Of a DNA stretch of 64,000 nucleotides, positions 8,355 to 30,273 are shown piece after piece. The number at the start of each line of letters is the position of its first letter. The stretch's first letter is position 1. The translations under genes and the position numbers were made by a program. The DNA comes from Thermodesulfobacteriota bacterium (GTDB lineage Bacteria > Desulfobacterota > Binatia > Bin18): positions 3,360,001 to 3,424,000 of the forward strand of contig OZ219926.1 in the NCBI GenBank assembly GCA_964291405.2, in the 5' to 3' direction. The notes beneath the pieces are model-generated. The model worked only from the letters and a program-made list of their open reading frames with translations, was not told where the DNA came from and ran no database searches.

Positions 8355-9550
8355 CTAAATCACCCCGTCCTCTTTGAGTACCTGAATTTCAGCCTCGGAC
8401 AAGCCCAGCAATTTGCTGTACACCAGTTCGTTATGCTCTTCGGACTTGGGGTGTCGTTGGGAGGCTGCTGGTCGTTAAAACGCCAGGGTGCACCGAGCAC
8501 GGTGACAGGACCGGCGGTGGGATGATCGATATCCTTGAGGATGCCGCGTTCGCGCAGGTGGGGGTCGTTGAGGACTTCTTCGACGGTCTGGACCGCCCCA
8601 CAGGTGATATCCGCCTCGCCACACAGGCGCATGATCTCGTGTTTTGGATGACGTGAGGTCCAGGCGCTGACAATCGCATCCACTTCATCCGCGTGTTTGG
8701 AGCGGGCTCTATTGGTCGCGAATTTTTCGTCCCGGGCGATATCCTCACGTCCCATGAGGGTACACAGCGCCTGCCAGCGCTGATTGTCCGAGGTCAACAA
8801 TAAGACGTAGCCGTCACTGGCGGGATAACAATTATACGGAGAGAAGGCGCGGTTCGGCGCCCGGTTGCCGGCGCGCTCATAGCTGCCACCTTGGGCGCGG
8901 TAGGCCGATATCTGGGCGGTCAGCGGTCCGATGGCCGACTCGAACAGCGAGGTTTCTACTTCGAGCCCCTCTCCGGTGCGGTCGCGTTGATGCAGGGCCG
9001 CCAGTATGCCGGCCGCAAAATGGATGCCTGCCATAATGTCCATAATCGGTGGCCCGGCCTTCATCGGTGGGCCGGCCGGATCGCCCGTTGTGCTCATGAT
9101 ACCGGACAGGGCTTGGACAATGGAGTCAAACGCGGGGTAGGCGCTGTACGGGCCGGTCTTGCCATAGCCCGAGCTTGACGCGTAAATGATACGCGGGTTG
9201 AGGCGCTTCAAGTCCTGATAGCCCAGCCCCAACTTGTCCATGGTCCCGGCGGTAAAGTTCTCGACGACAATATCGGCGTGTGTCACAAACTGTTTGAACA
9301 GCTCTTTGCCGCGTTCGGATTTGAGATTGAGCGTGATGCCTTTTTTGTTCGAGTTGAGCATCACAAAGGGATAACTCTGCTTTTCGGTGTCCGGAATGGG
9401 AAAAATGCTGCGCGCGCGCTCACCGTAGGGACGCGGCTCGATCTTAATGACTTCGGCTCCGAGCAGCGCTAACACCTGGGCGGCATAGGGACCGTTAAAG
9501 ACGTGGGTGAGATCAAGAACGCGGATATCATCGAGTGCTCGCATAGACAC
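8355..9550 (-). CDS. Class III CoA-transferase (CaiB/BaiF), frameshifted near the C-terminus
   Basis: RVLDLTHVFNGP, GAEVIKIE, NSNKKGITLNLK, AFD; the family tail EHNELVYSKLLGLSEAEIQVLKEDGVI* continues in another frame from ~8438 to a stop at 8355. Confidence 0.88.
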
Positions 9551-9666
9551 TTCCCTTCATCAGCGGTCAGCTATCAGTCGATGCAGGGAAAGGCAAGCAA
9601 GAGAGGGGATTTTCTGAGAGGAGAAGAAAGGAGTACAAAGAGGAGGAAACACTCGGGAGGTGGACT

Positions 9667-11103
9667 ATGCTGGATCTCATCATTAGCGGGGGAACTGTTG
9701 TGACGCCCCACACCACGGCGGAACTGGATGTAGGCATTGCCGGGGAGCATATCGTTGCCGTGGGCCAACCGGGAACTCTGAATGCCTCTGCCGGACGGGT
9801 GATCGATGCAACGGGAAAAATCGTCCTGCCGGGCGGGATTGAGCCGCATGCCCATATTGGCATTCCCGTCCCGCCGGACTGGACCGGCCAGCCGGACGTG
9901 ATGACCCAGCCTCCCGAGGCGGCCAGTCGGGCGGCCGCGTTCGGTGGGGTGACGACCATTATCGATTTTGCCGGCGACCTGTCCCGCAAGGCGCTCCGCG
10001 GAGAACGGCGCCGCCCGCTGCTTGAGGTGCTTGAGCGCCGGCGGGCTGTCTTTCGCGACCACTGCTACACGGACTTCGCCTTTCACTACATGCTTGCCGG
10101 GGAATGCGGACACCAGGCCGCGGGCCAGATTGCCGAGGCACTACAAGAGGGCGTAGGCAGCTTCAAGATTTTTACCACCACGGAGGTGCGCATCCCGTAC
10201 GGACATCTGTGGGAGATTTTTGCCGAAGTGGCCAAACACGGCGGTATGATGGCCGTTCACGCGGAAGAGGACGAGATTGTGAATTATATGCTTGAGAAGC
10301 TTAAGCGTGAAGGCCGCGACCAAGCCTATAATATGCACCTCGTCCACAACAATCTGTCCGAAGACTTGGCCTTTCGGACGATCATTCGTCTGGCCGAGCA
10401 CACCGGCACCGGGGTGTATTTCGTCCATACCACGGCCAAAGAAGGCGTGCGTGCCATTGCCGAAGCGCGCCAGTCCGGACAGCCCGTATACGGCGAGGCC
10501 CTGCATCACTATCTGCACTTCACCTGTGAAGATTATAAGAAGCCGGACGGCATGGCGATTCATACCTATCCGGCGCTGAAATTCGCCGACGACCGAGAGG
10601 CTCTGGTGGACGGGTTACTCGACGGACGCCTGTGCACCACGGCCACGGACGAGTATACGACCTATAAAGGCCCCAAACTGTTCAGCGATCGTATCGAATC
10701 CATCTGCGGTGGGCATAACGGCATCGAGACGCGTATTCCGGTGGCGTTCACGAAATGTGTGGTCGAACGGGATATGCCGCTCCAGCGCTTTGCCGACATC
10801 ATCGCTACCAACGCAGCCAAGATTCTGGGTCTGTATCCGCAAAAGGGTGCCATTCAGCCGGGCAGTGATGCGGATATTGTCCTGCTCGACCCTCAGTTGA
10901 TCAAAACGCTGGAGGTAGAGGACCTACACGCCGACTCCGACTACAGCATTTGGGAAGGATTTACCTGCCAGGGTTATCCGGTGATGACGCTCTTGCGTGG
11001 GAAGGTGATTGTCGAAGACGGCAAGCTCGTCGGCCACTCGACGGGCGGGCGCTGGCTGAAGCGCAAGATCGGGGGGGATGTTTTGGTTCGGCCCGCTCTT
11101 TGA
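9667..11103 (+). CDS. Dihydropyrimidinase/D-hydantoinase-like cyclic amidohydrolase
   Basis: PGGIEPHAH, GGVTTIIDF, SFKIF, VHAE, ATD, YPQKGAIQPGSDADIV. Confidence 0.88.
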   Translation: MLDLIISGGTVVTPHTTAELDVGIAGEHIVAVGQPGTLNASAGRVIDATGKIVLPGGIEPHAHIGIPVPPDWTGQPDVMTQPPEAASRAAAFGGVTTIIDFAGDLSRKALRGERRRPLLEVLERRRAVFRDHCYTDFAFHYMLAGECGHQAAGQIAEALQEGVGSFKIFTTTEVRIPYGHLWEIFAEVAKHGGMMAVHAEEDEIVNYMLEKLKREGRDQAYNMHLVHNNLSEDLAFRTIIRLAEHTGTGVYFVHTTAKEGVRAIAEARQSGQPVYGEALHHYLHFTCEDYKKPDGMAIHTYPALKFADDREALVDGLLDGRLCTTATDEYTTYKGPKLFSDRIESICGGHNGIETRIPVAFTKCVVERDMPLQRFADIIATNAAKILGLYPQKGAIQPGSDADIVLLDPQLIKTLEVEDLHADSDYSIWEGFTCQGYPVMTLLRGKVIVEDGKLVGHSTGGRWLKRKIGGDVLVRPAL

Positions 11104-11126
11104 TGCTATTGTCCGTCTAACAGGCC

Positions 11127-11184
11127 ATGACTACGTGGGACCCACAACAATATCAGCGCTTTCAAAAGGAACGCGCCCAGCCGT
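11127..11184 (+). repeat. Direct-repeat copy of the first 58 nt of tam (orphan 5' fragment; reads MTTWDPQQYQRFQKERAQPSVHA* to 11198)
   Basis: 54/58 nt identical to 12839-12896, no indels. Confidence 0.93.
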
Positions 11185-11390
11185 CGGTCCATGCCTGACT
11201 TTTTGCGGCACCAGCATGTCCTATTATACAGGTGCATCTGAAATATTTGAGGCTTCTCGCACGAGGTCAATTCGTGAGAGTTTGTCTGAAGGAGGAAATC
11301 CTTAACTGGAAAAATAGAGCAATATCGGGTATATACTCCAGAGCTTCTTGCGCGGTTTCACCGAAGCGAGGCTGGCTGCTCTGGGGATAC

Positions 11391-11933
11391 GTGTTGGTAA
11401 AAATAAAAGAATTTTCTGCGGCATTGTATGTACCAGTATTGTTGTCATTGGCCGTGCTTTCGCATCATCTCATTCGAACCTCCCGCTACGATCTTTCGAC
11501 GTGGAAGGGAGGCGGGATGGGGATGTTTTCGACCCAGGATGATCACGACACACGCTTTGTATCGATTTGGCTGGAGACCGAAGCGGGTGAGTTTGTCGCC
11601 GCAAGGAGGAATATCGGGAAGCCCCTAGACCGCTATGTGGCCGAACCCACCGCCTCCAATTTGCAGGCCCTCTGCCGGCATCTCGGCGAGGTCGTCTGGA
11701 TTGACGCAAGACAGAGCAAAACCCCTATTCACACCACCGAAAGCGCCAAGCCGGTTCCAGTGGCTATGGTTCAACGTGTGGCATCCGCCGCAGGTGAGCC
11801 CCTCATTACTCGTCGTATTCGCGTGATTGGTTTTAAGCTCGTTGTGGACGTAGCCAGCGGAGAGCTGCACCACCAAACTCTTGGAACCCTCAGTTGCGAA
11901 GCGAACGCAGCGAGCGGTGATGGACGCGGTTGA
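11391..11933 (+). CDS. Hypothetical membrane-anchored protein, possible SdpA-like partner of the downstream HTTM protein
   Basis: One N-terminal hydrophobic helix followed by YDLSTWKGGGMGMFST; GTG start at 11391 preferred; 14-bp overlap with the next gene. Confidence 0.6.
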   Translation: MLVKIKEFSAALYVPVLLSLAVLSHHLIRTSRYDLSTWKGGGMGMFSTQDDHDTRFVSIWLETEAGEFVAARRNIGKPLDRYVAEPTASNLQALCRHLGEVVWIDARQSKTPIHTTESAKPVPVAMVQRVASAAGEPLITRRIRVIGFKLVVDVASGELHHQTLGTLSCEANAASGDGRG

Positions 11934-12816
11934 TCGTCTTCGCAGCCACCCTGTGGTGGGACAATTGGCCGGCGCGACACCGCGCGATTCTTTTACTGTC
12001 ATCACTTCTCTCACCCTTGGTATTCTTGTCTTTCGCGGCTACCGTCACGACTATTTTGAAATTCCCTTTCAGTTGCTCTTTGTCGCATTCTTGCTTGTTC
12101 CCAGGCTCCGCACCCAGGCCCTCTTCTGGTTTTTGATTGCCTGTTTCAGTGGCGCGGCCTTGTGGCTCGACTGGCGGTCTGCCGACAACCACAAATACCT
12201 GCTGTTCTACTGGCTCGTGACCGTCTTTCTTGTCTGCAAACAGGGCGAACAGGAGCGACCTCTTATGGTCAAAAAGGTCGCCCGCTATCTGCTGTGCTTC
12301 ACCATGACGCTTGCCGTGGCGCAAAAATCTCTCTCACCTGACTATTTGAGTGGTGATTTTTTTCAATTTGTCCTTATGACAGATGAACGCTTTAGCGCCA
12401 TGGCTGCTCTATTCTGTGGCATTGCTCCCGAGGTTCTTGAAGCAAATCGGGTACTGTACCGCCAAGCCTCGGACCCGGTGAACCTGAACGCCACCTTTCC
12501 ACTCCTTTTCAGGAATGAAAAACTGGTATTGCTTGCCGGCGTCATGACGTGGCTCAACTACCTGATCGAGACCGCCATTGCTGTGCTTGTTCTGCTTCCG
12601 CTGTCAGTCCGTTGGTCAATCACCATGCATCTGCTGTTAATCGGCTTTATCACTGCCGTCTATGCTGTGGCTCCGGTCCTTGGCTTCGGCTGGCTGCTGA
12701 TTATTTGGGGCTATTGTCTCGCGCCCAACGAACTTGTCGCACTCCGCCTCAGTTATATTGCCTTATTTTTGCTTCTGTGTGTGTATGAAGCCCCGTGGTT
12801 GAGCTTGTTGGTGTGA
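11920..12816 (+). CDS. Polytopic membrane protein, HTTM / vitamin K-dependent gamma-carboxylase-like (SdpB-like)
   Basis: Many TM segments; ADNHKYLL and AVAQKSLSPDYLSG resemble the NH-x-YL and K...D[WY]..G motifs of the HTTM/VKGC family. Confidence 0.6.
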   Translation: MDAVDRLRSHPVVGQLAGATPRDSFTVITSLTLGILVFRGYRHDYFEIPFQLLFVAFLLVPRLRTQALFWFLIACFSGAALWLDWRSADNHKYLLFYWLVTVFLVCKQGEQERPLMVKKVARYLLCFTMTLAVAQKSLSPDYLSGDFFQFVLMTDERFSAMAALFCGIAPEVLEANRVLYRQASDPVNLNATFPLLFRNEKLVLLAGVMTWLNYLIETAIAVLVLLPLSVRWSITMHLLLIGFITAVYAVAPVLGFGWLLIIWGYCLAPNELVALRLSYIALFLLLCVYEAPWLSLLV

Positions 12817-12838
12817 AACTCTCTCATTCAGTGTTTTT

Positions 12839-13630
12839 ATGGCTATGTGGGACCCGCAACAATATCAGCGCTTTCAAAAGGAGCGCGCCCAGCCGTTCTT
12901 TGATTTAGTGAATCGTCTGCCGGATGGCGAGGTAAAAACGGCTGCCGATTTGGGCTGCGGACCGGGCGCGCTCACGGCGACTCTGACCGAACGCTGGCCC
13001 CATGCAACCGTGTGGGGGGTGGATAACTCGCCCCAGATGTTGGCCAAGGCCAGGGCGCTGCCGGCTCAGCCCCGGCTGCATTTTGTGGAAGCGGATATTG
13101 CCGAGTGGTCCCCGCCTCAACGGCTGGACCGCATCATCTCGAACGCGGCTCTGCACTGGGTGCCCGAGCATCAGACCGTTTTACAGCGCCTGGTCGGCCT
13201 GCTAACTCCACGCGGCGTGCTGGCGGTACAGGTGCCGAACAATCATGCGGAGGCCGCCCACCGGATTCTGCGTGAGTCAACGCAGCAAGAGCCGTGGAGG
13301 TCGCCGCTGGCCGGCTCGGAGGAGCGCTTTACGATACAGACCCCCCGCTGGTATGCCCAAACGCTCCACAGCCTCGGGTGTACAGTCCAGGTATGGGAGA
13401 CGATTTATTACCAGCTCTTGTCCGGTGAGAATGCGGTCCTGGAATGGATGAAAGGTACGGCCCTACGACCGACGCTTGAGCGCCTGGGTCAACGCCTCGG
13501 TCAGGATGGGCAGACCGCATTTCTGGATATGTACGGTCAGAAGCTCGCCCAGGCCTATCCGGTCGGTCCGAACGGGACGCTGTTTCCTTTTCGCCGCCTG
13601 TTCTTTATTGCGCAGCACGATGAGCCCTGA
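12839..13630 (+). CDS. tam: Trans-aconitate 2-methyltransferase
   Basis: WDPQQYQRF..ER.QPF, DLGCGPG, SNAALHWVPEH, LAVQVPNN, W.KGTALRP, LFPFRRLF. Confidence 0.9.
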   Translation: MAMWDPQQYQRFQKERAQPFFDLVNRLPDGEVKTAADLGCGPGALTATLTERWPHATVWGVDNSPQMLAKARALPAQPRLHFVEADIAEWSPPQRLDRIISNAALHWVPEHQTVLQRLVGLLTPRGVLAVQVPNNHAEAAHRILRESTQQEPWRSPLAGSEERFTIQTPRWYAQTLHSLGCTVQVWETIYYQLLSGENAVLEWMKGTALRPTLERLGQRLGQDGQTAFLDMYGQKLAQAYPVGPNGTLFPFRRLFFIAQHDEP

Positions 13631-13724
13631 TAACACTCCGGGCCATCTTGCCACTCACGGAGTCGGCTGAGTCTAAAAGCCAATCGAGAGGGCAATCCAC
13701 CACCAGCGGTGTTGAGAGATTGTT

Positions 13725-14954
13725 GTGTCAAACAGCACGCACAAACGCGCGATCTTCATTCTGGCCGGGGCGGTGTTTGCCACCATGCTGGGAAACGGTA
13801 TGGTGATGCCCTTCATTCCCGTGTATGTCGCGCAATTCGGCTTGGGCGGCCTGGGAGCAGGCTTGCTGTTCAGCGTCCATGCCGCCACCCGGACCGTGTT
13901 GTTGCCGTTCATCGGACGCGCGTCCGACCGCTGGGGCAGGCGTGGCTTTCTGCTGGTCGGGGTGCTGTTCTACGCCTTGGCCTCCCTGGCCTATCCCCTG
14001 GCCGACCGGGTCGCGGCCTTTGTCGGCATTATGGCGGTCCACGGCACGGGCATGGCCATCGTTCATCTGGTTTCCATGGCCTATGTCGGCGACTTGGCAC
14101 CCCGGGGTGAGGAGGGCCGCTACAGCGGCTATATGAATACCGCCCTCCTGGGTGGAATTGCCAGCGGACCTGTTTTGGGAGGAGTCATCCGCGACCTCTC
14201 TTCCATGTCGGTCAATTTTCTGGTGATGAGCATCCTGAGCGGGGTATCCCTTTTCTTGCTGGCGGTCCTGCTGCCTCCCGTCGAGTCCATCCGGACCGGA
14301 CCGAAAAACCCCAAGCCAGCTTCTACCACGCCCTGGCAATTACTCTCCTGTCGTCCGGTCGTCGGGGTGGCGAGTTTTCGTCTCGCCTATGCCTGCACGA
14401 ATGCCTTGATCTGGATATTCCTGCCGGTCCTGGCCGCCCAGCTATGGACCTTGTCCACGACGCAGATCGGGGTGCTAATCTCCGTCAACGTGATGGTCAG
14501 CACCGTACTGCAAGCCCCCTGCGGCCGGCTGGCCGACCGGAAGCGAAAGGCCGTGCTGATTGCCCTGGGTGGAGTCGGCAGCGCGCTGGCCCTGGCCGCC
14601 GTTCCGTTTGCGACCGCGTTCTGGCAGGTGCTGGCCCTCAATATCTGTATAGGTGCCTGCTATGGTTTGGCCTTCCCGGCCCATACCGCGGTCGGCATGG
14701 AGAACGCCGGCCCGTACGGCATGGCCACCGTCATGAGCCTGCTGATGATGGCGCACGGTGCCGGCATGATGGTCGGGCCGCTGCTATTCGGCGCCATTGC
14801 GGATCAGCTGAGTCTGGCCTGGGCGTTCTGGGCCGGGGGGCTGATCAACCTCGGCCTGGTCATCGCATGTTGGCTGTTGCTGGTCGGAGCGCCGACCAAG
14901 CTGGAAGTCGAACCACTCCGGCCCGTGAACACCGACCCCGTTGAGGCGGAGTGA
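13725..14954 (+). CDS. MFS transporter
   Basis: About 12 hydrophobic segments; motif A GRASDRWGRR and GRLADRKRK. Confidence 0.92.
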   Translation: MSNSTHKRAIFILAGAVFATMLGNGMVMPFIPVYVAQFGLGGLGAGLLFSVHAATRTVLLPFIGRASDRWGRRGFLLVGVLFYALASLAYPLADRVAAFVGIMAVHGTGMAIVHLVSMAYVGDLAPRGEEGRYSGYMNTALLGGIASGPVLGGVIRDLSSMSVNFLVMSILSGVSLFLLAVLLPPVESIRTGPKNPKPASTTPWQLLSCRPVVGVASFRLAYACTNALIWIFLPVLAAQLWTLSTTQIGVLISVNVMVSTVLQAPCGRLADRKRKAVLIALGGVGSALALAAVPFATAFWQVLALNICIGACYGLAFPAHTAVGMENAGPYGMATVMSLLMMAHGAGMMVGPLLFGAIADQLSLAWAFWAGGLINLGLVIACWLLLVGAPTKLEVEPLRPVNTDPVEAE

Positions 14955-14989
14955 AGGCTTTCCAGAGGCGTCCTGCGTGGGATTAGAGG

Positions 14990-15372
14990 TTATGGGCACA
15001 GATCGTTGCGAAGAAGGCGTTTATGGGCACTGGTCTGATAAATTTTGCCTCTGACGATTGTCTTGAAGTCGGAGTGCAGATTTTCGTCGTTTGAGACCAG
15101 CAACTTCACTCCAGAAACCTGAGCCAAAGCGATAATATCCGGGTCGTCCGTCTGTTTCCTGCTCAACGGCAGGAAAGGTCCTGAGTTTTCCGGCCCTGCT
15201 GTATTGCTCAAACCGGCTTCTCACATTTGGAGACTTCTCTAATTCGATCTTCATCTTGCCCTGGTGAATAGGCAATCTTACCGCTCTTGTCGTCCACCCA
15301 CTTCCTTACGGGTTTCATGTCTTCATTATTTGGATCAAGAAAGAGGCTATTCGTGTCCAGGATTAAGCACAT
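14990..15372 (-). pseudogene. Frameshifted PIN-like nuclease gene
   Basis: Three frames join to MCLILDTN...KIAYSP/GKMKIELEK...VEQE/DDPDIIALAQVSGVKLLVSNDENLHSDFK...; AAGGA RBS upstream. Confidence 0.7.
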
Positions 15373-15381
15373 GGTTTATCC

Positions 15382-15893
15382 TTAACCAAAACCAAGCAAT
15401 TTGTCGGATTCTCTAAGAAAGAATTCCCTATAGCTGCCCGGCGCACCCAGCAGGTTCGCTTGCTCGTCAAATTGGATATTGTGAACTTTGACACTATTAC
15501 CCGTCGGCTCCAGATAAAGGAGCGAAACATCTTCTGGCGAGATTCTTTTCTTCATGATCTCAATACGAGCACGGCCATGTGGTCGCTGTGTGTTTCATGA
15601 TGCTTCATCTGTCTGGCGAGATGATAGAGATGACAACTTGGATGCAGGTGCTGGCTGGCATTAAAAACGTTACTCTCGGAGGTGCGTTGAACACGCGTAC
15701 CTCACGCCGTAACCTACATCTATCATATTGGCTTTGGTCCTTTGACTTTGATTTGCAGGAAAGGGGTCACCCATCGATCTTCCGAGTCTCCTAACATCGA
15801 TGTCTGCGAATAATCCTGAAGCTACGCCGAATTTGACCAATCTCCCTTTGAGGCCTTTTCGTTTGCTCTAAACATATTCATAAGGACCATTGG
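15382..15893 (-). pseudogene. Degraded C-terminal half of an ABC/AAA-type ATPase (AAA_21/DUF3696-like)
   Basis: Fragments across frames: PMVLMNMF, LVKFGVASGLFADIDVRRLG, ANMIDVGYGV (ABC signature region), FLM.QP..HLHP, ETHSDHM, RARIEI...GAPGSYREFFLRESDKLLGFG*. Confidence 0.72.
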
Positions 15894-16045
15894 GCTGATC
15901 AACCTCGGCCTGATCATAATCGCCTGAAACTATGCGCTATTGCTGGTAGGAGCTGATAAATTCTTTCGTCCTTCGACGCGAGATGGAAGGGCGAACCGCT
16001 CCGCAGCCTGTTCTGAAAAATTGATACCGATCTGCTGTTGAGGCG
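15892..16045 (+). repeat. Degenerate copy of the MFS gene 3' end (14838-14948)
   Basis: 21-bp exact match gggctgatcaacctcggcctg, then collinear blocks ct[g/a]ttgctggt[c/a]ggagc, tggaag..cgaacc.ctccg, accga, gttgaggcg separated by small insertions. Confidence 0.75.
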
Positions 16046-23065: not shown

Positions 23066-24040
23066 ATGCGTATCAGTCTGGATCCCTGGGGGGGCGATTA
23101 CGGCAGCCAGATTTCGACGCCACAGGCGGTCGATGCAGAACAGCTCTCCGCGCAAGTGACGGGTCAGCAGGTTGAGGCTGGTCCGTGGCAGCCCCGGACA
23201 CCAGCTCCCGAGCAGATGCCGAACATGACCGCGGTGATTGACGGCGTCATGCGGGTCGATGCGCCTGCGGTCCTAAGTGACGACGACACGCGCTTTCTGG
23301 CCCTGTTCGGGTCGTACGCGGCTGGGGCGGTCGTTATTGACCGCCGGGTTGAGATTATCGAGGAACAGCTCGACCGCCTCTTTATTGTTGGCGGGGGGCA
23401 ATCCGGACAGGATGTGCTGGTCGCGGCCGGAACGGGTGGAAAGATTCCCATGCGCTACCGGAGCATGAGCGTGTCGGACCTCACCCCGGATTCCTTACGT
23501 GAAAGCCTCTTGACTGCAATGCGGCAGGCCGAGGTTGATTTGGCCCGAAAGCTGTCTGGGAACGAACGTCTCATACTTGCGGACGGTAATCTGACCTTTT
23601 TAGGCGATAGCTCCTCAGTTGTTGGGGTCATCAAGACGATTCAACGTATGTACCTTGCGCCCAAAGAGGCAAAAATTCTCGAACAGCTTCAACCGGGGGA
23701 ACGAACACCGCTGTTCCAATTCTCTGGCAGTAGCAGGCGAAAAAGTTTTGAGGTGTTCACCTGTTATCTACGTCTGGCGAATCCGCGACCGATCGAGCAT
23801 CCATTTACCGGACTGGTGCGCTTAGAAGTGAAGCTTGGACTTGGTATTCAGCAGGCGGTCATACTGTTAGATCAAGCCGCACGCGCTGTTTCGGCTCTGG
23901 CCTCCCGCGCGCCAAAAGACCCCCGCGCCCCTCAAAACTTGATTCCCATCGGCGGACTAGAGCGACGGCTGCGGCACCGGCTGGGTGACCCCAAGCTGGT
24001 CCGGCGGTGTATTGAGAAGGCCCTCCTGAACCAGGTATAG
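23066..24040 (+). CDS. nurA: NurA-family 5'-3' nuclease
   Basis: MRISLDPW, VIDGVMR and LADGNL acidic motifs, VGVIKT, PGERTPLF, GLVRLE, DPRAPQNL.PI..LE..LRH.LG; lies directly upstream of herA. Confidence 0.82.
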   Translation: MRISLDPWGGDYGSQISTPQAVDAEQLSAQVTGQQVEAGPWQPRTPAPEQMPNMTAVIDGVMRVDAPAVLSDDDTRFLALFGSYAAGAVVIDRRVEIIEEQLDRLFIVGGGQSGQDVLVAAGTGGKIPMRYRSMSVSDLTPDSLRESLLTAMRQAEVDLARKLSGNERLILADGNLTFLGDSSSVVGVIKTIQRMYLAPKEAKILEQLQPGERTPLFQFSGSSRRKSFEVFTCYLRLANPRPIEHPFTGLVRLEVKLGLGIQQAVILLDQAARAVSALASRAPKDPRAPQNLIPIGGLERRLRHRLGDPKLVRRCIEKALLNQV

Positions 24041-24060
24041 CCAAACGGAAAGGAGAACGC

Positions 24061-25755
24061 ATGGGGAGAGTCATCGGCACGCAAGACGCCACCCCGCTCG
24101 AATTCTGGGTGTGGCTCGAAGAAGGCGAAGCGATCCAGGTTGATGATGCCATCGTGGTTGAGACCGACTCGCCAAACGGACCGCTGAAATTATTCGGCAT
24201 GGTCGATATCGTCCGGGCACGCCATCAGGGCTCGACGTTTGACTCCGACGTGGTTGAGGCGGAACGCGGTCTGCCCGTTGAACTCTCTATCGCCGCGCAC
24301 GTTAAAGTGACTCGTTTGATGCCGGAGTATTATTATCCGCCGATGCCGGGTGACCAGGTCCGTACGGTCGAGGATGAAGAATTCGCGCAAGCCCTGTTCA
24401 TGGACAAGATGGAGCGCAAGTTCCCGATCGGCCTGTCCCTGTCCGGCAAGGATGTTGTGTACGGCAACCTGGATTTTCTGAACGGCCGCAAGGGCGCGCA
24501 TATGAATATCAGCGGCGTGTCCGGTATTGCCACCAAGACGACCTACTCCACCTTCCTGCTCCACAGCCTGCTGCACTGCGGGCATCTGACGGACGCGAAA
24601 AACACGCACGCGATTATTTTTAATGTCAAAGGCGAAGACCTGCTGTTCCTGGACAAGGCCAGTAACGTCATGCCCGTAGAAGAAGAAGCCCTCTACGCTC
24701 AACTGGGCTTGCCGGCGGAGCCGTTTGATTCGGTTCAATTCTACGTCCCGCCCACGGAAAACGCGCGCGGTCCGATCATGCCTAAGGTCAGCTCCCGCAA
24801 GGCAGATGAGGTTACGCCATACTTTTGGACGGTCCGGGATTTTTGTCGGCAACGCCTGCTGCGCTACCTGTTTTCTGAAGGCGGGGAAGACGCCTCTTTG
24901 CTGTCAGCCCTGACCTATCAGGTGGAACGCAAACTCCTTGAAGCAGCCGAAGACGCCGAGAAAGATGGTCCGGGTCCGGGTGTGTTGCTCCCCTTGGGAG
25001 AGGATCTGGCAGAGGACGACAGTTCAGCCCCTCCGACCGAGGTTCGCGATTTTCCGACCCTCCTCCGAGCGATGGAGGCCATTGCCAGTAATACCAACCA
25101 TTCGCCCGGTACGGTCGGCGCGTTTATGCGTCGTCTGTACAGCGCGGAAGACAAGGTCGCGTATCTTATCCGTGACCCTGCGGACTCCGACGCGGCCCGG
25201 CACGCGATCAGCTGGCGCAACAAGCAGGTAACCGTGGTCAGCCTGAGCGGACTGTACGAAGTTGGAAAGAGCTTTGTGGTGGGATCGGTGTTGCAACAGA
25301 TTCAGGAAGAAAAAGAAGCGACCGGATCGGCGGAACCCCTGTGTTTTATCGTTGTGGACGAACTGAACCGCTACGCGCCCCGTGACGGCTGGTCTCCGAT
25401 TCGAGAGCGGCTGCTTGAGATTGCCGAGCGGGGGCGATCCAGCGGCACGATTCTGATTGGTGCGCAGCAGACCGCTTCCGAAGTGGAGCGGCGGATTGTT
25501 GCCAATCCTGCCTTTCGGATCGTCGGCCGGCTGGATGCCGCCGAAGCCGAACGGGCCGAATATGGTTTTCTACCGCCAACCCTGCGCAAGCGGGCCGCCA
25601 TTTTAACGTCAGGGCGGATGATTGTGTCTCAACCCGACATCCCCACTCCGGTCCCGATTAAGTTTCCCATGCCGGCCTGGGCGACCCGGGCGGACGAACA
25701 GAAATTGCCGCCACCTGCTTTGAAGCTGTCCCGAGTCCGAGAAAGCGAGTATTAA
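24061..25755 (+). CDS. herA: HerA-family helicase/translocase ATPase (bacterial clade)
   Basis: N-terminal HAS-barrel-like region, HMNISGVSGIATKT P-loop, FNVKGED, Walker B IVVDELN, AERGRS arginine finger, GAQQ. Confidence 0.87.
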   Translation: MGRVIGTQDATPLEFWVWLEEGEAIQVDDAIVVETDSPNGPLKLFGMVDIVRARHQGSTFDSDVVEAERGLPVELSIAAHVKVTRLMPEYYYPPMPGDQVRTVEDEEFAQALFMDKMERKFPIGLSLSGKDVVYGNLDFLNGRKGAHMNISGVSGIATKTTYSTFLLHSLLHCGHLTDAKNTHAIIFNVKGEDLLFLDKASNVMPVEEEALYAQLGLPAEPFDSVQFYVPPTENARGPIMPKVSSRKADEVTPYFWTVRDFCRQRLLRYLFSEGGEDASLLSALTYQVERKLLEAAEDAEKDGPGPGVLLPLGEDLAEDDSSAPPTEVRDFPTLLRAMEAIASNTNHSPGTVGAFMRRLYSAEDKVAYLIRDPADSDAARHAISWRNKQVTVVSLSGLYEVGKSFVVGSVLQQIQEEKEATGSAEPLCFIVVDELNRYAPRDGWSPIRERLLEIAERGRSSGTILIGAQQTASEVERRIVANPAFRIVGRLDAAEAERAEYGFLPPTLRKRAAILTSGRMIVSQPDIPTPVPIKFPMPAWATRADEQKLPPPALKLSRVRESEY

Positions 25756-25765
25756 GGATACGGGC

Positions 25766-26944
25766 ATGAGGTTCCTTCACACCTCGGACTGGCACGTGGG
25801 CCGGACTATCCGTAATCGCTCGCGGATGGATGAGCACCGGGCGGTCTTTGCAGAGATTGTTGATATCGCTAAGCGCGAGCAAGTTGATGCTGTCCTGGTG
25901 ACCGGTGACGTCTTTCACGAGCGACGCCCGCCGCTTGCTGCCGAGGAACTGGTGGCGCAAACCCTGGCGCAACTCGCCCGTGACAATATCGTCTCTGTCG
26001 TCATTCCCGGTAACCACGATGACGCCGCCCGCCTGCGCACCCTGAAACCGCTGGGCGATTTGCTCCAAGTGCATATGGTGACGGATATGAGTGAAACCCC
26101 GTCGGACCTCATCGTTTCCATTCCCCAGCGAACCGGAGGAGAGCGGGCGCTAGTGAGTTGTCTGCCCTATCTGCATCCTCACCGCGTCCTGACTGCGGCA
26201 GAAGGAACCGACAAAAGCGAGAACGAACGTCTGAGTGCGTATCAGAGCATGGTGCAGGACTATCTCCGTGCCCTGGAAGAGTCGATGCTGCAAATGGACC
26301 CCAACGCGGTGTCTATCCTGCTCGCTCACGCTCATGTTTCCGGGACGGAGTTTGGAGGGGGCGAATGGCGCTCAAGCGTCTTTCCTGTCGATCCGGGGAT
26401 ATTTCCCAGTCAGGTACACTATGTAGCCCTGGGGCATATGCATCAGCCCCAAAAGGTGGGCGGGACACGGGCGCAGGCTTACTACGCCGGATCGATCTTA
26501 CAGATGGATTTTGGTGAGCGGGACCAACAAAAAAGCGTGTATCTGATTGAGGCGCATCCGGGGAAACCGGCGGAAGTCTCACTGATTGCGCTGACCGCAG
26601 GCAAAGCCCTGCTGCGCCGGACGGGAAGCGCCGAAGAAATACTGTTGCAGGCGGAAGAATTCACCAATGCGTGGGGTGAGGTCGTCTTAAAGCCGGAAGG
26701 CCAAACGTCTGAGATGATCGAACAAATCCGAGCGTTGCCGGGCATAGTCTCGCTCCGGTTTGAAGAGACGCAGGTCAGCGATTCCAGCGGCGAAACGGCC
26801 CACAATCCAAAGGAGCGACCCGCGGCGGAACTTTTCACCGACTACTACAAGTCAAAACGTGGCGCGGCTCCCGAGCCTCAGCTTGTAGCCCTGTTTGAGC
26901 GGCTGTATCAGGAGGTCAGCACCGCGCGTGACGAGCCCGTATAA
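25766..26944 (+). CDS. sbcD: SbcD/Mre11 metallophosphoesterase nuclease
   Basis: LHTSDWHVG, TGDVF, PGNHD, AH, YVALGHMH, YAGS..QMDFGE. Confidence 0.95.
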   Translation: MRFLHTSDWHVGRTIRNRSRMDEHRAVFAEIVDIAKREQVDAVLVTGDVFHERRPPLAAEELVAQTLAQLARDNIVSVVIPGNHDDAARLRTLKPLGDLLQVHMVTDMSETPSDLIVSIPQRTGGERALVSCLPYLHPHRVLTAAEGTDKSENERLSAYQSMVQDYLRALEESMLQMDPNAVSILLAHAHVSGTEFGGGEWRSSVFPVDPGIFPSQVHYVALGHMHQPQKVGGTRAQAYYAGSILQMDFGERDQQKSVYLIEAHPGKPAEVSLIALTAGKALLRRTGSAEEILLQAEEFTNAWGEVVLKPEGQTSEMIEQIRALPGIVSLRFEETQVSDSSGETAHNPKERPAAELFTDYYKSKRGAAPEPQLVALFERLYQEVSTARDEPV

Positions 26945-26991
26945 GTATTCGCCTAGCTCCAACCCCGAACCCCAAGTCCCCCATTAACGCC

Positions 26992-29900
26992 ATGCGCCCA
27001 CAAAAACTCAGCCTCAAGAATTTCATGCCCTTTCGGGCGACAGGTGATCAGGAGCACGAAGTCGACTTTTCGCAACTCGACCTGTTCTCCATTACCGGCC
27101 CGATGGCCAGCGGCAAGTCAGCGCTCATCGACGCTATGGTCTGGTGCCTGTATGGCCGCACCGCACGCTACGGTACGGATTCAAAAGGGGTGATCTCGAC
27201 CGGTGAGCAGACGTGTGAGGTCGCGCTCGACTTTACGCTTGGATCGCGCTGGTTTCGGGCCGTAAGACGAACGGGGAAAATCACAGACTCCGGTCTCAGC
27301 GAACGCGAAGGGGAAGAGTGGATACAGGATGCCTCCGGGTCTGCGCGGCTTACCAGACGGATTGAAGAGCTCCTGGGCCTCGATTTTGACAGCTTCACCA
27401 AAACCGTCATCCTTCCCCAAGGCCGGTATGCCGAATTTCTCACCAGCGAGCCAAAAAAACGGCGCGAGTTACTGGCAAAAATCCTGGAGCTTGGCGTGTA
27501 TTCTCGGGTGGCCGACCGGGCCAAACTTGTGGCTGACCGGGAAAAAACTCGGGCGGAAACGCTGCGTGAAACTCTGGCTCAATACGCCGGTTTGAGTCAG
27601 GAGCATATTGCGCTTCAGAAAGAAGAACTTTCCAAGCTCAGCCAGCGCATTGAACAGGTTTCTCAGCAGGAGCAACGCTTGCGCGATGTGGCCCAACACG
27701 CCGATCAAATAGCAGGCTTGCGAAGTCGCGTGACCGAGCTTCAGACCGAAGTGCAGACGCGTACTCGGGAGAAAGGGCTGGCGCAAAAAAAAGCCGATGA
27801 GGCGATCGCCCAGGTTGCCAGTCTGACCGGTGAATTGGCAAAGATTGGTCAGGAGCGAGAAGCGCTGGGATACGACGCGGCACGCCACGAAGTCGTCAAA
27901 CGTGCGGCTGTCCACCTCAAAGAATGGGCGAGCGTCCGCGAGGAAGCAGAACGGAAAAAGATAGAACGGACCGCTATCCAGGGAGAAGTTGATGCTCTTG
28001 TACAACAGATCGCAGACCACACACAGCAGGTCGAGCAGGCGCAGTCTCAATATCAGACCCACACCTCCACGTTTGAGCAGCTTATTGCCGAAGCAGGCGA
28101 CGTGGCTGCGCTGACGGAAAAGCTCAGTGCAGCAAGACGCTGGAAGGAGCTGCAACAGGAACAACAGCGACTAACCTTTCGGATAGAGACTCTGCGCCGG
28201 GACCACACCGCGACCCAACACCGTCTGGATGACCTGAAGCGACAAGACGCGAGTCATGAGCAGAACGTCCGAGAACTAAAAGACAAGCTCGAAGGAGCAA
28301 AAGAAGATGAGCGGCAGAAGCGCCAGTTGATGGCTGAAGCCGAACGCCTGGGCCGAGAATTGCAAGAGGCGGCTGAGGCGGAAGAACGAGTCAGAGCTGA
28401 ACTTGAGACTGCCCGTGCTGAGCTGACCAGGGCCGTTAACGCCGCCCAGCAGGCTCAGCAGGAGTTCGCTCAAGCCGAAGAGCAGGAGCACGCGGCCCGC
28501 ACCGCGCTTGAAGACAAGCAACGCCAGCACGAAGCCGCCCACCTGCGGGCTACGCTTCACGTTGGCGACCCCTGTCCCGTATGTCAGACTACCGTCAGCC
28601 AGATCCCCGTTGCTCAAGAAGCTGGGGACGACCTCAAGATGCTTCAGACTCAAATGGAACACGTCATACAGGCCGCTCAACAAAAACGCACAGAAGCGCA
28701 GGAAGCAAACACCACGGTGGCCACACGCCGGGCGAGACTTGATGCTGCGGAGCAGGGGTTGAAGGAACGCGAACGCCTCAGACAAGAAGTCCGGAACAGC
28801 TTTGTGTCACGGTTCCCCGGTTATGCGTCTCCTTCCGAAGCTCTTCAGGCTATACGGACCCAGCAAGAAGAGATGAGCGCAGCGCTCAGAGACATGGAAG
28901 CTCAGGTCGTATCCGCCGAGCAGGAAAAAGCGAGACTGTCAGGCCAACGTGAAGCCGCGCAACAAGGAGAGGCAACGCTGGGTGGAGAGTTGCGCGTGAC
29001 AACCGAAAGGCTGGAGGTCGATACACGCGAATTAGGAGTGCTCGGACGTGGGCTTGCTGCATTTTTCGCTACTAATGGCGACCCTGAGCAGAGTGTGGCA
29101 CAACGCCGGACTACGGTGATACAGGCTGAGCAACGGATGAAAGAGGCGGAGAAAGCCTTGCGTCAACTCGAATCGGTGCTCAACTCGTTGAAAACAACCC
29201 AGGTCCAAAAGGATGGCGACCTCAAATTGTTCGCCTCCGAGTACAAAGGCGCATTGCTTCGAGCCGAGCGCGAAGCACAGGCCGTGCGTACCTGCCTTGG
29301 TCTGGCGGAAGACGCGGTGCTGCCACAGACTGAAGACGTAGAAAATGAACTCAACGCGCTGTCGGACAAGCAAACCCGGTACGCCGACTTGTTGCAGCGT
29401 GAAGAAAACGCACGAGCGAGGCGAGAACAGGCTGAACGCCAAGCCACCGAGTCACAGGCCGACCTTCAAGCCCGAACGCATATGCTGGAGGAGTCACACA
29501 AGAAGCGGCAACAGGCATCCAACACGATTGCAGAGGAGCGGGAAAAGCTTCGTGGGCTGATCGAGCAACACAACCTCACCGACGCAGGCGAAGACGGAGA
29601 GCAGATCAAACCCCAACTTGAAACGGTTCGGGGACAGATGATGTCTCTCCAAGAACAACGCGGGCGTTTAGAGGCCGAACATGCCGAAGCCAAACGTCGT
29701 TGGCAGGAGAAAGAGCAAGAAGAAGAAAAGCTGCACGCCGCACAGAGTGAAGAACGTCTGGCCTCGGACCTGCGTAAGCTCCTGGGTTCGGAATTTACCG
29801 ATTTCTTGTCGCGGGGAGCCATAGAGGCTCTGATGCGCGATGCGTCCGCTCACCTGCAACGCCTCACCCACGGGCGGTATGCGTTTGATATTGCGTATCG

Positions 29901-30273
29901 GGGGCGGGCGATCACACTCCAAATTGTCGACCACGAAGATCAGCGCCGTGCCCGGCCTACCCATTCGCTGTCGGGCGGAGAAACGTTTTTAGCCTCGCTC
30001 GCTATTGCGCTCGCGCTCTCACAAGGATTTCGGACCGTGGCGACCGGTCGGGCGGCACAGACCTCAACCGAATGCCTGATTCTGGATGAGGGGTTCGGGA
30101 CGCTGGACCGGGAAGGGGTACAGATGGTCACGGAAACCCTGCAAGAGTTGCGGGGCGAAGAAGGTCGGATGGTAGGCATTATTACCCATGTCGAAGAAGT
30201 CGCTGCGGCCATGCCCATGCGCATAGAAGTACGCAAAGGTGGCAGGACGAGCGAGATTACGGTATCAGGCTAA
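26992..30273 (+). CDS. sbcC: SbcC/Rad50 SMC-family ATPase
   Basis: Walker A GPMASGKS, Q-loop LPQG, long coiled coil with central CPVC zinc hook (residue 528 of 1093), LSGGE, LDEGFGTLD, IITH. Confidence 0.95.
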   Translation: MRPQKLSLKNFMPFRATGDQEHEVDFSQLDLFSITGPMASGKSALIDAMVWCLYGRTARYGTDSKGVISTGEQTCEVALDFTLGSRWFRAVRRTGKITDSGLSEREGEEWIQDASGSARLTRRIEELLGLDFDSFTKTVILPQGRYAEFLTSEPKKRRELLAKILELGVYSRVADRAKLVADREKTRAETLRETLAQYAGLSQEHIALQKEELSKLSQRIEQVSQQEQRLRDVAQHADQIAGLRSRVTELQTEVQTRTREKGLAQKKADEAIAQVASLTGELAKIGQEREALGYDAARHEVVKRAAVHLKEWASVREEAERKKIERTAIQGEVDALVQQIADHTQQVEQAQSQYQTHTSTFEQLIAEAGDVAALTEKLSAARRWKELQQEQQRLTFRIETLRRDHTATQHRLDDLKRQDASHEQNVRELKDKLEGAKEDERQKRQLMAEAERLGRELQEAAEAEERVRAELETARAELTRAVNAAQQAQQEFAQAEEQEHAARTALEDKQRQHEAAHLRATLHVGDPCPVCQTTVSQIPVAQEAGDDLKMLQTQMEHVIQAAQQKRTEAQEANTTVATRRARLDAAEQGLKERERLRQEVRNSFVSRFPGYASPSEALQAIRTQQEEMSAALRDMEAQVVSAEQEKARLSGQREAAQQGEATLGGELRVTTERLEVDTRELGVLGRGLAAFFATNGDPEQSVAQRRTTVIQAEQRMKEAEKALRQLESVLNSLKTTQVQKDGDLKLFASEYKGALLRAEREAQAVRTCLGLAEDAVLPQTEDVENELNALSDKQTRYADLLQREENARARREQAERQATESQADLQARTHMLEESHKKRQQASNTIAEEREKLRGLIEQHNLTDAGEDGEQIKPQLETVRGQMMSLQEQRGRLEAEHAEAKRRWQEKEQEEEKLHAAQSEERLASDLRKLLGSEFTDFLSRGAIEALMRDASAHLQRLTHGRYAFDIAYRGRAITLQIVDHEDQRRARPTHSLSGGETFLASLAIALALSQGFRTVATGRAAQTSTECLILDEGFGTLDREGVQMVTETLQELRGEEGRMVGIITHVEEVAAAMPMRIEVRKGGRTSEITVSG

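Follow-up and report, generated by a model that had tools for sequence, protein, structure and literature searches.

A two-gene insertion at the start of a tam-like methyltransferase gene in sponge-associated Binatia: probable scar of one old, homology-assisted event

The 64-kb stretch of DNA analyzed here (the window; positions 3,360,001 to 3,424,000 of contig OZ219926.1, from a 4.95-Mb genome of uncultured, sponge-associated Binatia) contains a tam-like methyltransferase gene whose first 58 nt occur twice, on either side of a cassette of two genes, orfA and orfB. The locus is probably the scar of one old insertion, independent of any recombinase and assisted by homology through homology-facilitated illegitimate recombination (HFIR) or the single crossover of a circle, and not a live mobile element. 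A single insertion event accounts for all seven carriers of the cassette, relatives possess the allele without it, and the truncated copy of the tam start (the orphan) is decaying.

A repeat search of positions 9000–15000 returned one long direct repeat, with copies at 11127–11184 and 12839–12896 (58 nt, 93% identity, spacing 1712), and the next-longest direct repeat there is 23 nt at 74–78% identity. A pair matching at 54 or more of 58 positions has a chance expectation of 3.5 × 10⁻¹⁸ anywhere in the window. The two copies had been noticed in a sequence-only reading of the window, and a recount confirms 54 identities over 58 ungapped positions, the mismatches at repeat positions 4, 8, 18, and 45 comprising two synonymous differences (CCA/CCG and GAA/GAG) and two non-synonymous ones (ACT/GCT and ACG/ATG). 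In both copies the repeat begins exactly at the ATG and ends directly after CAGCCGT, and the outer 20 nt beyond either end show no similarity to each other. The orphan frame, which translates as that reading wrote it, MTTWDPQQYQRFQKERAQPSVHA, continues to a stop codon at 11196–11198.

The insert, described in the same reading as about 1.65 kb with two coupled genes of lower G+C, measures 1654 nt and consists of a leader, orfA, and orfB, all on the forward strand. The left junction (CAGCCGT/CGGTCC) opens into a non-coding leader of low G+C (11185–11390; 0.46), which is followed by orfA (11391–11933); the orfA frame is open from 11232 and its start is uncertain, with the conserved part running from about 11391 and the stop codon at 11931–11933. 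The orfB gene (11920–12816; ATG at 11920, stop codon at 12814–12816) overlaps orfA by 14 nt and encodes a predicted polytopic membrane protein of 298 aa. A 22-nt spacer containing the right junction (12817–12838) leads to the intact tam-like gene (12839–13630), whose nt 1–58 form the second repeat copy and whose product contains Pfam methyltransferase domains. The G+C content is 0.46 at 11150–11449 and 0.50–0.52 across orfB, lower than in the flanking hydantoinase-like gene (0.55–0.66) and in tam (0.58–0.66).

The site was compared across the genus, which is made up of Candidatus Binatia metagenome-assembled genomes (MAGs) of which the collection has 28 species representatives. A segment of about 10 kb surrounding tam, in a common orientation, was taken from every genome with a tam orthologue (orthologues occur in 20 other genomes of the genus), and 23 genomes could be classified; the unclassified ones are G008, whose contig is too short, and G003, G009, G012, and G016, which have no tam orthologue. 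The proposal that the cassette had been inserted into the 5′ end of tam, for which an empty site in relatives had been named as the check, is borne out, as the hydantoinase-like gene is followed by one tam in 10 of the 23 (G010, G001, G006, G017, G019, G013, G021, G020, G024, and G041). These empty-site genomes include the deepest branches, and their spacers range from 1 nt to approximately 50 nt; the 23-nt spacer of the window (11104–11126; TGCTATTGTCCG.CTGACAGGCC) recurs nearly unchanged 5′ of the single tam in G010, G001, G006, G041, and G019. The orfA–orfB cassette with an orphan is present in six genomes (G000, G023, G004, G002, G015, and G042), and a metagenome contig, L094, is the seventh carrier.

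The remaining alleles show that the site accepts other genes. As for the expectation of different cargo, three of the 23 genomes contain other cargo at the site, and none of these has a tam duplicate. In all three it includes a fatty-acid-hydroxylase gene (PF04116) on the opposite strand (loci L024 of G007, L029 of G018, and L034 of G011), accompanied in G007 and G018 by Flp/Fap pilin genes (PF04964). Four further genomes (G005, G022, G014, and G043) have no hydantoinase-like gene between a CoA-transferase gene and tam, and only fragments of the fatty-acid hydroxylase remain in G005. At least four allele types thus occur within a single genus between the hydantoinase-like gene and tam, which makes this gap a minor hotspot of plasticity. 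The tam matches in G021, G014, and G008 each contain one in-frame TAG; these may be broken genes or alignment effects.

All carriers descend from one insertion event, because they share one architecture and the left junction is kept in five of the seven. The right junction is identical in all seven, and the left junction, ...CAGCC(G/A)T/CGG(T/C)CC..., is common to G000, G004, G042, G015, and L094. In G023 and G002, separate deletions took the 3′ part of the orphan together with 28 nt and 92 nt of the leader, respectively, leaving orphan remnants of about 36 nt and about 33 nt. In G004, codon 4 of the orphan is an in-frame TAG, the orphan of L094 has lost one codon, and in the window's own population a 1-nt insertion polymorphism follows position 11175, as seen in Logan contigs. 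By-eye substitution counts of the orphan against the intact copy gave no clear excess in the orphan, and its decay is argued only by the indels and the stop codon. The insertion is old, as the cassette differs by 2.6–5.3% between carriers; this divergence is star-like and about equal to that of the flanks.

The comparison among carriers also changes the interpretation of the four differences between the window's copies, which the sequence-only reading had taken as divergence of the incoming DNA. The orphan consensus and the intact-copy consensus differ only at position 4 (A versus G) and perhaps at position 45, so that three of the four differences are later changes, lineage-specific or polymorphic. 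It is therefore inferred that one position, two at the most, distinguished the founder copies. The window's orphan itself is identical at 57 of 58 positions to the single tam of empty-site G010.

The cassette allele has been carried between species by homologous recombination in the flanking genes. In a tree of the rpoB region, which comprises 20 sequences (G023, G007, G042, G020, and G024 were unmatched, and the partial sequences of G005, G008, and G009 were left out), the carriers do not form one clade: G015 groups with G018, G043, and G011 (support 97–100), and G000, G002, and G004 group with empty-site G010 and G041. An approximately unbiased (AU) test on 17 sequences, from which G003, G012, and G016 were also dropped, rejects grouping the four carriers together (p = 3.5 × 10⁻⁷⁷), and allele types are interleaved in the local gene trees. 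The flanks of G015 are mosaic. This genome groups with G018 in the rpoB, tam, and MFS gene trees; its tam is near-identical to that of G018 from about nt 28, and G018-like sequence is also found in its MFS gene and in the distal part of the CoA-transferase gene. Over approximately 2.1 kb to the left of the cassette, which begin in the middle of the CoA-transferase gene and reach almost to the end of the hydantoinase-like gene, G015 shows only 1–5 differences per 150 nt against G010, compared with 5–19 for G018. Such mosaicism indicates that homologous recombination tracts end at the cassette, and recombination in the flanks explains the patchy distribution of carriers without an excision or integration system.

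The arrangement suggests how the insertion may have arisen. The starting allele would have consisted of the hydantoinase-like gene, the 23-nt spacer, and tam, as in the ten congeners, and a foreign segment of 1.65 kb containing the leader, orfA, and orfB would have arrived with a copy of the tam start. On one side this DNA would have recombined through homology in tam, and on the other side it would have been joined illegitimately at tam nt 58, by HFIR of a linear fragment in which orfA–orfB adjoined tam or by a single crossover of a small circle bearing tam nt 1–58. Either route would leave a truncated orphan start 3′ of the hydantoinase-like gene and a complete tam 3′ of orfB. The functionless orphan would afterwards decay, and the allele would be inherited and exchanged across species via homologous recombination in the flanks. 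The borders have the form that HFIR or a single crossover calls for, with tam homology at the right border, none at the other, and a 58-nt duplication next to the anchor; integration facilitated by homology, the fallback of the sequence-only reading, is the explanation now favored.

Several features of the junctions bear on this route. The left side, spacer and orphan, is that of an empty-type allele. The leader (11185–11420 compared) shows no similarity to any non-carrier allele at the ILLEGITIMATE left join and contains no remnants of other alleles, so that the left join is illegitimate. On the right, the 3′ flank of orfB is homologous to the locus of an orfB paralogue in G006 until 12833 (...ATTCAGTG); orfB-native DNA therefore reaches this position, and only TTTTT remains before the tam ATG, with a possible GTG overlap at the junction. 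The sequence GTGTTTTT+ATG is also found upstream of tam in G007, whereas empty-type alleles have CAGGCC+ATG, and a GCT at codon 2 is confined to the intact copies of six among the seven carriers. The exact start of the repeat at the ATG, the GTGTTTTT sequence, and the GCT codon are weak clues which suggest that the cargo brought the intact copy with it, from an allele that would share the tam coding sequence but not its upstream region. We infer from these junctions both the recombination route and the incoming DNA, rather than the recipient, as the source of the intact copy.

A number of observations weigh against this account. The GTGTTTTT sequence is 8 nt long, of which GTG belongs to the flank of orfB itself, and the similarity to the G007 tam upstream stops after these last 8 nt (p = 0.83 without them). 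The expected donor arrangement, orfA–orfB beside tam with no orphan, was not found, and apart from L094 none of the 92 orfA–orfB loci examined adjoins a tam-like gene. Founder copies differing at only one or two of 58 positions make a duplication of the recipient's own DNA possible, and the empty alleles of G010 and G041, nested among carriers in the rpoB-region tree, could have arisen by deletion between the repeats instead of being ancestral. As to the spread, the carrier group of the AU test was named after the tree had been seen, and the trees were built by a quick method with support from the Shimodaira–Hasegawa-like approximate likelihood-ratio test (SH-aLRT) only.

The near-identity of the founder copies is what favors a simple insertion in which 58 nt of the recipient were duplicated, when a staggered break was repaired or the template was switched at a replication fork, and in which no tam sequence came with the foreign DNA; the two consensuses, differing at position 4 and possibly 45, are what such an event would yield. 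We nevertheless consider this unlikely, as the duplication must begin exactly at the A of the ATG, and the 5–8 nt that precede the intact copy match the G007-type upstream and differ from the nucleotides preceding the orphan. To our knowledge, 58-nt target duplications would also be much longer than those of known transposition systems.

The sequence-only reading had preferred an attL/attR-like element, possibly a satellite mobilized in trans and able to excise. As a non-autonomous site-specific cassette, it would have the repeat copies as attL and attR, and a recombinase encoded elsewhere would move a 1.7-kb circle bearing a replacement tam start. This agrees with the direct repeats exactly at the borders, the single-copy empty site in relatives, the regenerated gene, the scatter of carriers on the rpoB tree, and the presence in the genome of three proteins of the tyrosine-recombinase family. 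However, the junctions shared among carriers (right in seven of seven, left in five of seven) record one event, and the mosaic flanks already account for the scattered distribution. The repeats are not conserved among carriers as att sites would be, the orphan having been cut, mutated, or made indel-polymorphic in several of them, and the other cargo at the site, in G007, G018, and G011, comes without a tam duplicate. We therefore regard a site-specific cassette as quite improbable.

The search for mobile-element machinery points in the same direction. The statement that the cassette contains no recombinase gene holds more widely, as no recombinase family was detected by Pfam among the open reading frames (ORFs) scanned from 379 to 30273. 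The proposed genome search had a divided outcome: three PF00589 matches were found in the genome, the nearest lying about 57 kb from the insert (contig position 3429582), but there is no other island with the 58-nt core, which occurs in the genome only at the two known places, and the 1.8-kb cassette stretch occurs once. Two of the three matches are 318-aa frames, which may be Xer-like, to judge from their size. In addition, the orfB paralogue of G006 stands at a different locus that has no such repeat. Among viral contigs, 68 pattern matches to the cargo gave no confirmed relative, and the only plasmid relatives are two weak ones (26–30% identity), carried by Deinococcus plasmids of 374 and 430 kb that are non-mobilizable. 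No independent insertion was seen, either as other cargo beside a tam duplicate or as the cassette at another copy of the core. An integron cassette was considered separately and rejected, with no attC-like inverted repeat at the borders and no integrase nearby.

It is very unlikely, in our estimate, that the 58-nt repeats serve as substrates for the general recombination of the host, forming a reversible, integrase-free cassette that excises as a 1.7-kb circle with the tam start and re-enters empty alleles of other strains through a single crossover. The nested empty alleles of G010 and G041 would then be excision products. No excision joint skipping 11185–12838 was found in the contigs of three sequencing runs, a weak test since contigs drop rare variants, and the flanks of G004 and G041 differ by 0–14 per 150 nt on both sides, from which no recent excision can be read. 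Such a cassette, if real, would owe its spread to the part of the target gene that it brings along, in place of a recombinase.

An assembly artefact, either a chimeric join or a collapsed repeat, has a negligible probability and is effectively refuted: chimeric joins do occur in MAGs, and Logan contigs break near 11015–11229, where two strain variants co-occur, but six species-level genomes from separate assemblies and contig L094 show identical architecture, and both junctions are spanned, with more than 31 nt on each side, by Logan contigs of three runs (X1, X18, and X19), although the runs that best cover this stretch may be the source sample itself. Misassembly, which had been named as a possible refutation of the duplication, can thus be set aside. 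The left junction is spanned at 11015–11229 (X18 and X19) and 11156–11344 (X1), and the right junction at 11200–13600 (X18), 12631–13045 (X19), and 12598–13100 (X1). Most runs containing the stretch are labeled sponge metagenome. At 10818–11229, X18 and X19 contain two variants of the end of the hydantoinase-like gene and the orphan region, with 2 versus 14–20 differences per approximately 220 nt; both variants have the orphan and the left junction, which indicates two co-resident carrier strains.

The orfA–orfB pair is a conserved, widespread, and unnamed two-gene module of predicted membrane proteins, found at loci including L095–L173. The orfB family comprises 25 protein clusters, with entries from Alcanivorax, Hyphomonadaceae, and Nannocystis among them, and was confirmed in at least 394 stretches of metagenome contigs. 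Of 401 Binatia genomes sampled, 18 contain a member, and the closer relatives of orfB (P0002–P0004) are 69–76% identical. In orfB, D-N-H and K residues are invariant. In 65 of 80 metagenome loci, the gene immediately upstream of the orfB homologue is a homologue of orfA (tblastn, E ≤ 1e-3). The orfA product is a small protein with one N-terminal membrane helix followed by an invariant W-K-G-G-G-x-G-M-F motif (alignment A2). Neither protein matches a Pfam family (E ≤ 0.01) or an NCBIfam family (E ≤ 0.001), and 24 orfA homologues likewise match no Pfam family; the scans of orfA, orfB, and the orfA homologues gave only three matches, at chance level (E 0.008–0.085). In G006, whose tam site is empty, an orfB paralogue of 67–69% identity (L050, 6347–7252, reverse strand) stands alone between citrate-synthase-like and 2-hydroxyacid-dehydrogenase-like genes, with neither orfA nor a tam-like repeat at that locus.

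The predicted structures provide a lead to the function of this module. AlphaFold2 (AF2) models were obtained with a predicted local distance difference test (pLDDT) score of 90.2 for orfB and 83.8 for orfA. The predicted fold of orfB resembles that of vitamin K-dependent gamma-carboxylase (GGCX): five GGCX entries are matched with VIA-align Z scores of 12.7–12.9 (root-mean-square deviation 3.7–3.9 Å over 214–220 residues, 13–16% identity), and Z below about 13 may, for helical membrane proteins, mean only a common helix arrangement. The next fold matches reach Z 10.5 and then 5.3 or less, and Foldseek gives only weak E-values of 0.37–0.96 (TMq about 0.5). The orfA model matches no fold in the PDB above Z 4.3, its GGCX row of Z 3.1 lies within the noise, and no fold is assigned. 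Among 50 neighbor proteins scanned with Pfam, a DCC1-like thiol-disulfide oxidoreductase gene was found 3′ of the orfB homologue at three loci (L095, L097, and L102). In its predicted membrane-domain fold and these DCC1-like neighbors, orfB is reminiscent of the GGCX/HTTM proteins; it differs from GGCX in its length of 298 aa, in having no large lumenal domain, in its low sequence identity, and in matching no family profile. A literature search on bacterial HTTM proteins found nothing relevant. The models thus hint at a redox membrane module of an HTTM-like kind but do not make orfB a member of that family, and orfA–orfB may be an uncharacterized HTTM-like system.

The genes around the insertion bear names that are best-hit labels only. 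The tam product has its best full-length matches to the trans-aconitate 2-methyltransferase models NF010703 (275.6 bits, cut-off 320) and NF002463 (259.2 bits, cut-off 297), both under the equivalog cut-off, hence "Tam-like". The gene on the left flank (9667–11103, forward strand) encodes a hydantoinase/dihydropyrimidinase-like amidohydrolase with a Pfam Amidohydro_1 domain, scoring 327.5 bits against dihydropyrimidinase TIGR02033, under its cut-off of 393.25. The right flank contains an MFS transporter gene (13725–14954, forward strand; Pfam MFS_1) that is syntenic in most congeners. A tRNA scan and an Rfam search (E ≤ 1) of the locus found no RNA gene. Promoter-like sites at the locus number 1 against 1.2 expected, terminator-like sites number 8 against 3.4 ± 2.2 expected, and a weak hairpin at 11183–11199 spans the left junction; nothing is inferred from any of these.

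Two further regions of the window attracted attention. At 14990–15372 on the reverse strand, within a stretch of low G+C (15000–16000; 0.44–0.49), two adjacent short frames of 54 and 73 aa read in translation like a PIN-type nuclease gene broken by a frameshift, and they have no Pfam match at 1e-5. At 23066–30273 on the forward strand, a NurA-domain protein, a 564-aa protein with no Pfam match, a calcineurin-like phosphoesterase (Mre11/SbcD-like), and a 1093-aa SbcC/Rad50-like ATPase are encoded in a group that resembles a DNA-end processing cluster of the NurA–HerA–Mre11–Rad50 type.

If the favored account is correct, the locus is a natural case of a gene pair entering a chromosome without mobile-element machinery. 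The insertion would have regenerated the gene that it interrupted and left a datable scar, and the new allele then crossed species boundaries by homologous recombination. An attL/attR-like duplication around an insert is accordingly insufficient to call a mobile element, and the tests that discriminate are the identity of junctions across carriers, the conservation of the repeats, and the presence of other cargo at the same core. The orfA–orfB module may merit separate study.

Integrative elements that insert into gene ends carry a replacement end, which restores the gene and leaves a fragment of it orphaned at the distant border. The present locus shares this architecture, with its regenerated gene and far-border orphan, and differs from such elements in having no integrase and no conserved repeats, and in that no repeated or alternative insertions and no excision were seen. 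HFIR is said to have been reported originally by de Vries and Wackernagel in 2002, Prudhomme et al. in 2002, and Meier and Wackernagel in 2003. It combines homology at one end with an illegitimate join at the other, as described in PMC3240628, which also describes single crossovers of circles in E. coli, in which the duplicated gene part was 109–950 bp of lacZ. The likeness to HFIR, as known from transformable bacteria and from conjugation in E. coli, lies in the one-sided homology, the illegitimate join, and the lack of a dedicated recombinase. Those were laboratory events, whereas here the event is read from its product in uncultured genomes, and PMC3240628 predicts a deletion for HFIR, whereas the outcome here is a short duplication.

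A Campbell-type single crossover likewise places the insert between direct repeats of a common segment and yields one truncated and one complete gene; here, the common segment measures just 58 nt, a circle is only postulated, and the insert has no plasmid or replicon functions. For the displacement of type VI secretion system (T6SS) effector–immunity modules in Vibrio cholerae, an HFIR-like route has been proposed, with plain homologous replacement being commoner, according to PMC5361080. Those modules resemble the present case in that an incoming module is anchored by a conserved neighbor, resident sequence is displaced, and orphans are left; they differ in that successive events build arrays there, whereas a single event with a 58-nt orphan and no serial replacement is seen here. 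The kind of event is thus known; the new details are this instance, the way flanking recombination has spread it within a symbiont genus, and the cargo family.

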